Both the position numbers and the translations under genes were made by a program. The notes under the pieces were generated by a model. That model was not told where the DNA came from. It saw nothing but the letters and a program-made list of their open reading frames with translations, and ran no database searches. 64,000 bases of DNA from Candidatus Versatilivorator sp. (GTDB lineage Bacteria; Acidobacteriota; Terriglobia; Versatilivoradales; Versatilivoraceae). Shown piece after piece: positions 59,500 through 60,819 of this stretch. The DNA is taken from the NCBI GenBank assembly GCA_965207735.1, contig OZ242296.1, forward strand, positions 1,152,001-1,216,000. The letters are read 5' to 3'. Numbering within the stretch: position 1 is the stretch's first letter; each line of letters starts with the position of its first letter.

Positions 59500-59703
59500 C
59501 TGGTGAGACGGCTACGGGGCGGCCGAACGGCTTCGGTTTTCTGCCGCCCATTTCGCGGCTATGATTCTTGTCGCATATCGATACGCAGGATGGACAGGAT
59601 GAACTGGCAGACGATGCTGTTTGTCCTGTCCAGCGATGTTTCTATCACGATTGCCGCCGTCTGCTGCAGCGGTTCCTCTCTAGTCGATCGACCCTTCCCC
59701 TAG

Positions 59704-60815
59704 CCCGCATTTCTCACCAGGTCGCTGGTGCCATGACGAAAAGTAGTTTATCTTCAGTACTTTGATTGGCTCCATGGTAAGGGCTTGCGGGTAGCAGACA
59801 GCGCTGGGCATGCCCTGGCTTGTTTTTTCCCCTTCAACGCGCACATGCTCCCTCGCGCGTAGTGACCGCTACGCTCTTCGGTCGCGAGCATGCCCTGAAG
59901 GGAAAAATCCTGCGCCATGATCATGCCCCCTGGGTAGAGTCGAGGACTGGCGCGTTGACTATAGGGTCCGGTGGCTATTCCGTCGCTTTCGCTTCGGGCC
60001 TCAGTCCGGCTCCCTTATCACGTTTCCAGTCCCCGCTCTCCGAACCGGACGTGCGGTTTTCCCGCATCTCGGCTCTCCAGTGGGATCATGCGTCTCGCAC
60101 ACAGGTCCCCGCTCGCATCCGTGGACGACTCCTATGGGATTGGCACCCGTCCCCCACTCCATCCACTTCCGCTCCCGGGTTGCCGCCAGGCCTGTTGATG
60201 CCCTGACGACGCCGTCCTCCTCCGACGACCCTTTCACTTTTGCATGTGATGCTTCCGGAGTCTCCGGCCCTTTTTTGGTCGGGGTTTCAGGCTTTCGCCA
60301 CTCCCGGGACCCTTCCCCCTTCGGTCACCGCTCCTCACCTGAGGCCCCTTCCCTCCACCGGTATTACCCGGCTTCTCCGGTACTACAGGCCTCTCCGCCA
60401 CCCTGTCGGCCTAGACTGACTCTCGCGAGCTTCCGGTTCGGTGCGTGCCTCACCACCCACAGGGCTTCCCATGTTGCTGCCTTCTTCCCCTTCCATGCGT
60501 GCCAGCGCCACTACCCCGGCGGGTCCAAAGGGGTGCCCGCGTCGCTCGCTTCCCCCTCCGTCTTCGGCCTTCCCCATTTCTCAGGTGGGTCGGCCCCCGC
60601 ATTGCCCGTTTCGAGGCCTGCTCGACGTTCACTCGCGTTCCGGCCCGCATGCTCGCTGAACCGCCTTAAGCGGCCCTTTGACACCAGAGGGCTTCAGACC
60701 ATATCGTTACCTCCATGATCCGCCCTGGCTGCTACCAACCGGAGCGACAGTTGTTGGACGGGTTTCGCACCCGTTGGAAGAAGGCGCCTTTCCATGGCGC
60801 ACTGAGAAATGCGGG
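59704..60815. mobile_element. MITE (~243 bp, IS1380-like ends) interrupted by a group II intron
   Basis: 18-bp TIR CCCGCATTTCTCACCAGG at the left end; the identical right TIR is restored when 59934-60802 is removed; CTAG on both sides. Confidence 0.8.
59934..60802 (-). ncRNA. ORF-less group II intron (869 nt)
   Basis: 5' GUGCG at 60802; domain V GAGCCGAGAUGCGGGAAAACCGCACGUCCGGUUC (60075-60042); domain VI ending CUCUAC; no RT ORF. Confidence 0.9.
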
Positions 60816-60819
60816 CTAG

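Follow-up and report, generated by a model that had tools for sequence, protein, structure and literature searches.

Homing of a group II intron into the ends of insertion sequences is known from RmInt2 of Sinorhizobium meliloti GR4, a class D intron with its own reverse transcriptase (RT), and in the portions of PMC4615759 and of Table S1 of PMC3552965 drawn on here all of its seven copies lie in the inverted repeats of the insertion sequence (IS) ISRm17, with two opposite sites per element, a bias towards the lagging-strand template and no endonuclease. Spread in trans of introns without an open reading frame (ORF-less introns) is known from TeI3 of Thermosynechococcus elongatus, a CL1/IIB1 intron whose ORF-less copies, in the parts of PMC2882425 covered, exceed the ORF-containing ones, occupy well-paired sites and are mobilised in trans by driver RTs with an endonuclease-bearing helper; there the ORF-less form derives by one deletion from a resident intron, EBS mutation retargets it, one TeI3 family targets an IS, and recombination between intron copies has been suggested. 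A third point of reference is Ni.ha.I1 and the other g3/class F (IIF) introns, which in the sections of PMC3552965 and PMC3753933 used here are characterised by a terminal motif, a 5-nt domain V loop and an ORF of RT and X domains only. More generally, bacterial ORF-less introns are described as rare and their non-mobile derivatives are suggested not to persist (the relevant part of the review PMC4424553), and a moderate lagging-template bias has been reported for ORF-less introns in general (PMC8919778, in the part seen). Here we analyse an ORF-less intron with 28 near-identical copies placed 13 bp inside IS1380-type terminal inverted repeats (TIRs), which very probably spreads by endonuclease-independent retrohoming with an RT borrowed from a co-resident class F/g3 intron.

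The window is the whole 64,000-nt stretch of DNA that was analysed, and coordinates refer to it unless a genome position is given. The original prediction, an ORF-less group II intron inside the right TIR of a 243-bp, CTAG-flanked element, is borne out by the intron boundaries and Rfam matches. The locus comprises the following features.

59700-59703, no strand: left CTAG target-site duplication (TSD) of the MITE.
59704-59721, plus strand: left 18-bp TIR of the MITE, with an empty intron site between 59716 and 59717.
59722-59928, no strand: non-coding body of the MITE, of which the genome holds 34 full-length copies.
59929-59933, minus strand: inner 5 bp of the right TIR (CCAGG), the start of the 3' exon, with C at +1 as IBS3.
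59934-60802, minus strand: ORF-less group II intron (IIF/g3-type RNA), 869 nt, 28 genome copies.
59936-60039, minus strand: long domain VI with a predicted bulged branch A at 59940 (fold z -5.47).
60042-60075, minus strand: domain V with AGC triad and 5-nt GAAAA loop (Rfam and predicted fold, z -3.14).
60078-60340, minus strand: domain IV without RT gene, colinear in ORF-less relatives from two families.
60803-60815, minus strand: outer 13 bp of the right TIR, the end of the 5' exon, holding IBS1 and an IBS2 candidate.
60816-60819, no strand: right CTAG duplication, doubling as insertion site of the adjoining IS1182.
60820-62399, plus strand: IS1182-family element (transposase 60896-62218), abutting the TIR, a neighbour outside the intron.

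The intron runs from GUGCG to CUCUAC between the flanks CCCGCATTTCTCA (5') and CCAGG (3'), and thus has the GUGYG 5' end and AY 3' end of a group II intron, with boundaries alike in all 28 copies. Rfam recognises the domain I core (group-II-D1D4-4, RF02003, 80.8 bits) and domains V-VI (Intron_gpII, RF00029, 41.2 bits), and the predicted branch A lies 7 nt from the intron 3' end. The predicted lack of an RT gene was confirmed within the window intron, where intron-strand ORFs measure 64-78 aa and tblastn with a sister RT finds no RT remnant (best E 0.39). Contigs from sponge metatranscriptomes match the intron, including ORF-less-specific parts, and very deep RNA contigs of close relatives from one size-fractionated sponge study (runs X7-X9) cover 59915-60825; contigs cannot rank expression and many of these come from relatives, not from this sequence, so they were given no weight as a sign of intron expression. 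No lariat or circle joint occurs among the joints listed for two RNA-contig mappings (the best 15 of 22 and the best 15 of 18). Inside the intron, a sigma-70-like match on the plus strand (60678-60707; 10/12, with 0.2 expected in shuffles) is antisense to it and directed toward the IS1182 transposase.

The host element (59704-60815) measures 1,112 bp with the intron and 243 bp without it, has CTAG on both sides, and belongs to a set of 34 short, TIR-bounded copies of 242-254 bp without transposase, that is, MITEs. The resident IS is 1,698 bp long, with 20 paired copies of which 18 are identical; it carries its transposase between TIRs and falls into the IS1380 family by NF033539 (410.6 bits, cut-off 180). 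Perfect 4-bp TSDs flank 25 of the 34 MITE and 19 of the 20 IS copies. The 243-bp MITE shares its ends with the resident IS1380 and nothing else, and from these common ends and target sites we infer that it may be mobilised in trans by the cognate transposase. Sequence comparison agrees with the prediction that the left TIR (at 59704) is an identical, unoccupied site, and the intron does interrupt the host TIR, an 18-19-bp repeat that it splits into 13 and 5-6 bp; the view that the target is the TIR of a MITE stands as regards the TIR but not as regards the MITE alone, since the end repeat is common to the autonomous IS1380 and the MITEs.

No gene is interrupted at this locus. To the left of the MITE lie genes for a DDE transposase (below family cut-offs, 55145-56320) and a TonB-dependent receptor (56257-59499), and to the right of the IS1182 a sodium:alanine symporter gene. 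The 13 IS1182 copies of the genome have a CTAG duplication, and ten abut a CTAG just outside an IS1380-type TIR, a context that only 97 of 1,718 genomic CTAG sites offer; the same junction recurs 11 times in three congeners (L220-L230). Seven IS1182 left ends in this genome face an intron-filled TIR. A coupling of IS1182 with the intron, suggested by 7/7 against 17/59 here (post hoc p 4e-4), is not upheld, as only 2/11 of the congener junctions lead into an intron start. The IS1182 left end has no outward sigma-70 match.

The 5.26-Mb genome contains 28 full intron copies of at least 99.6% identity, 22 of them identical, and every one lies at the same site, CCCG(C/T)ATTTCTCA before the insertion point and CC after it, 13 bases into the end repeat. 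This sharing of one site (28/28) is beyond chance, and copies at unrelated sites, which would have spoken against the original prediction, were not found. The filled hosts are 15 full MITEs out of 34 (11 left ends, 4 right), four internally deleted MITEs, six of the 20 copies of the 1,698-bp IS1380 and three solo TIR-like ends without a partner, which leaves 14 of the 20 IS copies intron-free. Either end of an IS or MITE is used, each element presenting one site per orientation; in this genome at most one end per element is filled, and both are in one element of another genome (G011, locus L050). The expectation of many targets likewise holds genome-wide, with 27 of 147 exact sites (the 13-mer plus C) occupied. 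Empty TTTCTCAC sites number 277 in total, of which about 157 lack the exact outer bases; just one non-exact site is filled, a C-to-T wobble variant. In the 243-bp MITE at G000:C1:572744-572986, where G000 is this genome, the first 7 nt of the intron replace 7 nt of the left end, likely the scar of an intron loss through microhomology deletion; a 5' intron stub of similar kind is present at 331226. A 117-nt mini-intron with both intron ends (G000:C1:4261108-4260992) lies at the target of another intron family of this genome, family C, and is probably a deletion relic.

How the intron would recognise this site can be read from three segments of its RNA.

60511, minus strand: EBS3 candidate (G), replaced by A or U in relatives with a 3' exon starting with T or A/G.
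60577-60583, minus strand: EBS1 UGAGAAA, in the 9-nt loop of the hairpin 60595-60567.
60596-60602, minus strand: EBS2 candidate AUGCGGG, complementary to exon -13 to -7, with weaker support than EBS1.

The 9-nt EBS1 initially proposed, UGAGAAAUG (60583-60575), is present and lies in a hairpin, but had to be shortened: the loop is CCUGAGAAA and in the predicted fold the final UG belongs to the stem, so EBS1 is only the 7-nt UGAGAAA (60583-60577). The UGAGAA motif itself folds, as predicted, inside the EBS1 hairpin loop, and from this position EBS1 can form seven pairs, one with each of the 7 nt that close the outer TIR segment. All fetched relatives together have 24 distinct loops, over which the mean run of EBS1-exon pairing is 5.33 consecutive pairs; with shuffled exons it is 2.21, and none of 2,000 shuffles reaches the observed value. 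The relatives include kin and are to that extent not independent, but they have diverse targets. Where the 3' exon begins with C the EBS3 candidate is G; with T it is A, and with A or G it is U, except in two congeners that have G before T. The EBS2 segment offers a 7-nt complement, but part of it is a conserved motif found also in introns with other targets; in the part of PMC3753933 consulted, EBS2 is dispensable for splicing of IIE/IIF introns and a role in homing is proposed for it. Since sites with just IBS1 and IBS3 are almost never used, positions -13 to -8 would be read as well. Taken together, loop position, covariation and the common site of all 28 copies support the claim of EBS1-directed homing into TIRs at the level of sequence. 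In all targets read within the genus (families A, B and C; loci L060, L062 and L064), positions -13/-12 are CC and positions -2/-1 are CA although the EBS1 loops differ, which could reflect recognition by protein or EBS2, and the introns of genome G008 may use IS1380-like ends of other types.

The orientation of the copies bears on the route by which they arrived. With the replication origin placed at dnaA (3.54 Mb), 24 of the 28 introns are oriented as for insertion into the lagging-strand template and four are not. The favoured strand has 66 exact sites, 24 of them filled, and the opposite strand 81, of which 3 are filled (Fisher p 2.5e-7). Three further origin models put 22-23 of the 28 copies in the favoured orientation. 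For the introns of family B the figure varies with the origin model, from 11/13 (dnaA) through 10/13 to 7/13 (local skew). An origin at the global skew minimum (4.51 Mb) was replaced by that at dnaA. Irregular GC skew marks two regions, 2.8-3.1 Mb and 3.8-4.5 Mb, and over about 3.8-4.5 Mb it opposes the replichore predicted from dnaA, which suggests a large inversion.

These data may be accommodated in a single sequence of events. As sequence and covariation show, EBS1 pairs with the 7 nt at the close of the outer TIR segment and the EBS3 G with the following C, and TIR positions -13 to -8 would be read in addition, probably through EBS2; a helper RT would bind the intron RNA in trans; and, to judge from the strand bias, the RNA would reverse-splice into the exposed lagging-strand template at the replication fork. 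Each IS or MITE provides one end per orientation, and both are used. Could the intron instead have reached a TIR on one or a few occasions and then been copied as cargo of IS1380-driven transposition? Filled ends keep the outer 13 bp and the TSD intact, and another IS1380-family element is reported to transpose with right ends matching at only 3-12 of 14 bp (PMC12116815, in the part available), its transposase thus accepting poorly matched right ends. At one pair of loci the MITE is identical and the same end holds the intron, and the identity of 18 of the 20 IS1380 copies leaves their history beyond resolution. Against such carriage, introns occur in four end types as well as in solo ends, and the filled ends are strand-biased while exact sites overall are not (66 versus 81). 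Moreover, the 15 intron-bearing MITEs differ by a mean of 8.0 nt (of 105 pairs one is identical), and two SNPs in the intron are each shared by copies in different host ends; because identical introns sit in diverged MITEs, homing explains the pattern better than co-transposition, and independent homing from several donors is the best reading. Carriage is thus disfavoured as the main route, for which we consider it improbable, and a minor contribution could stand through the single identical pair of MITE and intron.

Still less probable is DNA-level gene conversion among the TIR and MITE repeats, without an RNA step. These repeats visibly recombine, as domain I swaps, deleted MITEs and the 7-nt intron scar attest, but the homology on the 5' side is just 13-17 bp with differing flanks, no homogenisation of the MITE haplotypes beside the intron is seen, and EBS covariation and strand bias would be left unexplained. 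That the host keeps the intron as a brake, retained because it splits IS1380 and MITE ends and so curbs transposition, seems the least probable of these accounts: the end repeat is indeed split after bp 13 in 15 of 34 MITEs and 6 of 20 IS copies, yet the 14 intron-free IS copies are mostly identical and therefore recently active, sister introns of the same RT type go to unrelated repeats, and there is no sign of host selection. We therefore retain retrohoming with a borrowed RT as the preferred reading.

Such retrohoming would need an RT in trans, as the original prediction held: the intron has none, and 14 co-resident RT ORFs are intact, passing TIGR04416 without stops. They comprise the twelve intact RT introns of family B, in a dispersed repeat (a thirteenth is frameshifted), the one intact RT intron of family C, in a palindrome, and the following.

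Genome position 5004992 (G000): RT intron with intact RT, sharing target and EBS1 with the window intron and lodged in the left end of a variant IS1380.

This last intron, sharing both EBS1 and target, is slightly favoured as the helper; a helper among the twelve family B RTs is a tentative second choice, and another RT, or several, an unlikely third. The resident RTs group with both g3 references (Ni.ha.I1 and the A. caldus g3 ORF) with SH-aLRT 98 in a quick tree built with the references of PMC3552965 Table S2, in which g1, g2 and D fall outside the clade and no class E or g4 reference stands. The class F/g3 placement rests on these sister RTs, the intron itself being without RT. The RTs are not of class D, with 29% identity to a class D reference that falls outside their clade, and class E identity was set aside because the tree points to g3/F, although no class E reference was included. 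Residues 17-454 of a 456-aa resident RT align with the RT-X-only ORF of Ni.ha.I1, and this end-to-end alignment leaves no room for an endonuclease. The intron RNA has the 5-nt GAAAA domain V loop and, judged by eye, an alpha/alpha' complement; a 5-nt domain V loop and alpha' at a stem-loop tip are common to IIF and IIE introns in the covered part of PMC3753933.

The two halves of the intron have different affinities. Its first 400 nt are 92.5% identical to the same-target RT intron at 5004992, but over its last 200 nt identity to the three resident RT intron types is no more than 62-63%, so that a simple deletion of a resident parent does not account for it; the resident RT-encoding parent for which the original prediction called was not found. 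Among fetched loci, the closest RT-linked domains V-VI are those of a metagenome fragment (88%; L191/L192), and none closer appeared among the best two candidates per genome in 401 genomes of the phylum. This genome also contains, at 1135573, a second ORF-less intron whose 3' half is the same (95.8%) and whose domain I is 98.5% identical to that of RT intron C; it lies at C's target as well. In two other genomes (G004 and G008) the same 3' half carries a B-type domain I and is located in the B-type repeat. Domain I is 98.5% (this genome), 95.7% (G004) and 96.5% (G008) identical to that of a co-resident RT intron, the G008 domain being equally near (96.5%) to an RT intron from another genome. 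Altogether, the 3' halves of nine ORF-less introns (six genomes) are 92-99% alike, with 5' parts that form types about 86% alike.

The search of 401 genomes of the phylum also yielded, in another family (G294 and G368), colinear ORF-less introns of 863-867 nt whose last 400 nt are 67-70% identical to ours. Three of them lie 13 bp inside a different IS1380 end (CCTG.ATTATTCG, followed by T after the insertion point), beside IS1380 transposases, with EBS1 and EBS3 changed to fit this end in two of them and a poorer fit in the remaining one. The G368 intron is identical over its first 435 nt to co-resident RT introns, and in G294 two copies with different targets are 99% alike in the 3' half and 91.7% in the 5' half. 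In four genomes altogether, domain I is nearest to a co-resident RT intron. Selection on domain IV structure is only weakly supported by a modelled common fold (9/78 pairs with double changes, covariation term near zero). At the level of these comparisons the ORF-less 3' half is a separate lineage, present in two families of the phylum, which appears to switch targets by swapping its guide domain with enzyme-coding relatives; the RT-coding neighbours would thereby give it domain I and target choice, most simply by homologous recombination near nt 400-460. Presence in two families could alternatively come from transfer between hosts. We lean towards the fuller view that the 3' half (approximately domains III-VI) is a long-lived, SINE-like, non-autonomous lineage of 863-869 nt, about 70% identical across the two families, which evades target saturation by capturing whole domain I modules from co-resident RT introns and has come to lie 13 bp inside two types of IS1380 end, its EBS1 and EBS3 changing to match.

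Beyond this genome, 22 of 24 fetched A-type ORF-less copies in congeners (at most 12 candidates scored per genome) lie at the TIR and two at a non-TIR site. A partial scan of GTDB genomes found the junction of the TIR with GUGCG at at least 107 loci, some of which may coincide with the congener loci and are not counted as independent. In 40 junction loci picked for taxonomic spread, Rfam finds domain I directly after the junction in 21, which by record title come from seven phyla and include Bradyrhizobium valentinum; an IS1380 transposase is nearby at six junction loci. RTs from outside the genus are 46-67% identical and do not form a single clade, and the idea of one TIR-targeting intron clade was dropped, as quick trees place TIR-sited RTs among other RTs in several supported clades. 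Of the RT relatives retrieved without use of the junction pattern, 11 have a readable exon, and none of these lies at this TIR. IS1380 ends thus look like a recurrent attractor for this intron class. A Bryobacterales record (L067, L069, L113, L117, L141 and L143) holds a separate ORF-less intron, 791 nt long, that matches ours in EBS1 and TIR position and is 75% identical in domains V-VI, with two facing junctions in L117; in a Verrucomicrobia record (L072, L129 and L152) tiny palindromes consist of the outer 13 bp of the TIR, 8-10 intron-like nt and the opposite TIR-like end.

How, then, does this system relate to those described? Parasitising transposon ends, as originally proposed, is supported here but was already published for RmInt2, which the intron resembles in strategy without being a relative. 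As with RmInt2, the copies lie in IS-type repeats (three of 28 in solo ends), two opposite sites per element are usable, insertion favours the lagging-strand template and an endonuclease is probably dispensed with; here, however, the intron is of class F/g3 type, ORF-less and present in 28 copies, and occupies IS1380-type ends, mostly of MITEs. With TeI3 it has in common the excess of ORF-less copies at well-paired sites and, very probably, mobilisation in trans, but unlike TeI3 it has a 3' half for which no close parent is resident, and it shares entire domain I blocks with different RT introns. The RNA and the sister RTs resemble those of Ni.ha.I1 and other g3/class F introns, Ni.ha.I1 itself having an RT ORF and a different target. 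A literature search, in which subscription titles were partly covered, found no paper that treats group II introns in IS1380 ends or a bacterial ORF-less lineage that captures domain I, and the portions consulted of PMC12584367, PMC8643678, PMC7923331, PMC4853749 and PMC2504315 do not describe this system. It offers a clean, quantified natural case of a known strategy, an enzyme-less retroelement on transposon ends in 28 copies, and bears on whether a TIR-resident intron blocks its transposon or rides it. If true, an ORF-less backbone in two families that is re-armed with domain I modules would be a route to long persistence, and such natural modular retargeting would be of interest to targetron design in the little-studied class F. 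Both halves of the system are already in the literature, the occupation of IS inverted repeats through RmInt2 and the mobilisation of ORF-less introns in trans through TeI3, and the less familiar part is the ORF-less 3' half as a separate lineage with a domain I nearest to co-resident RT introns.
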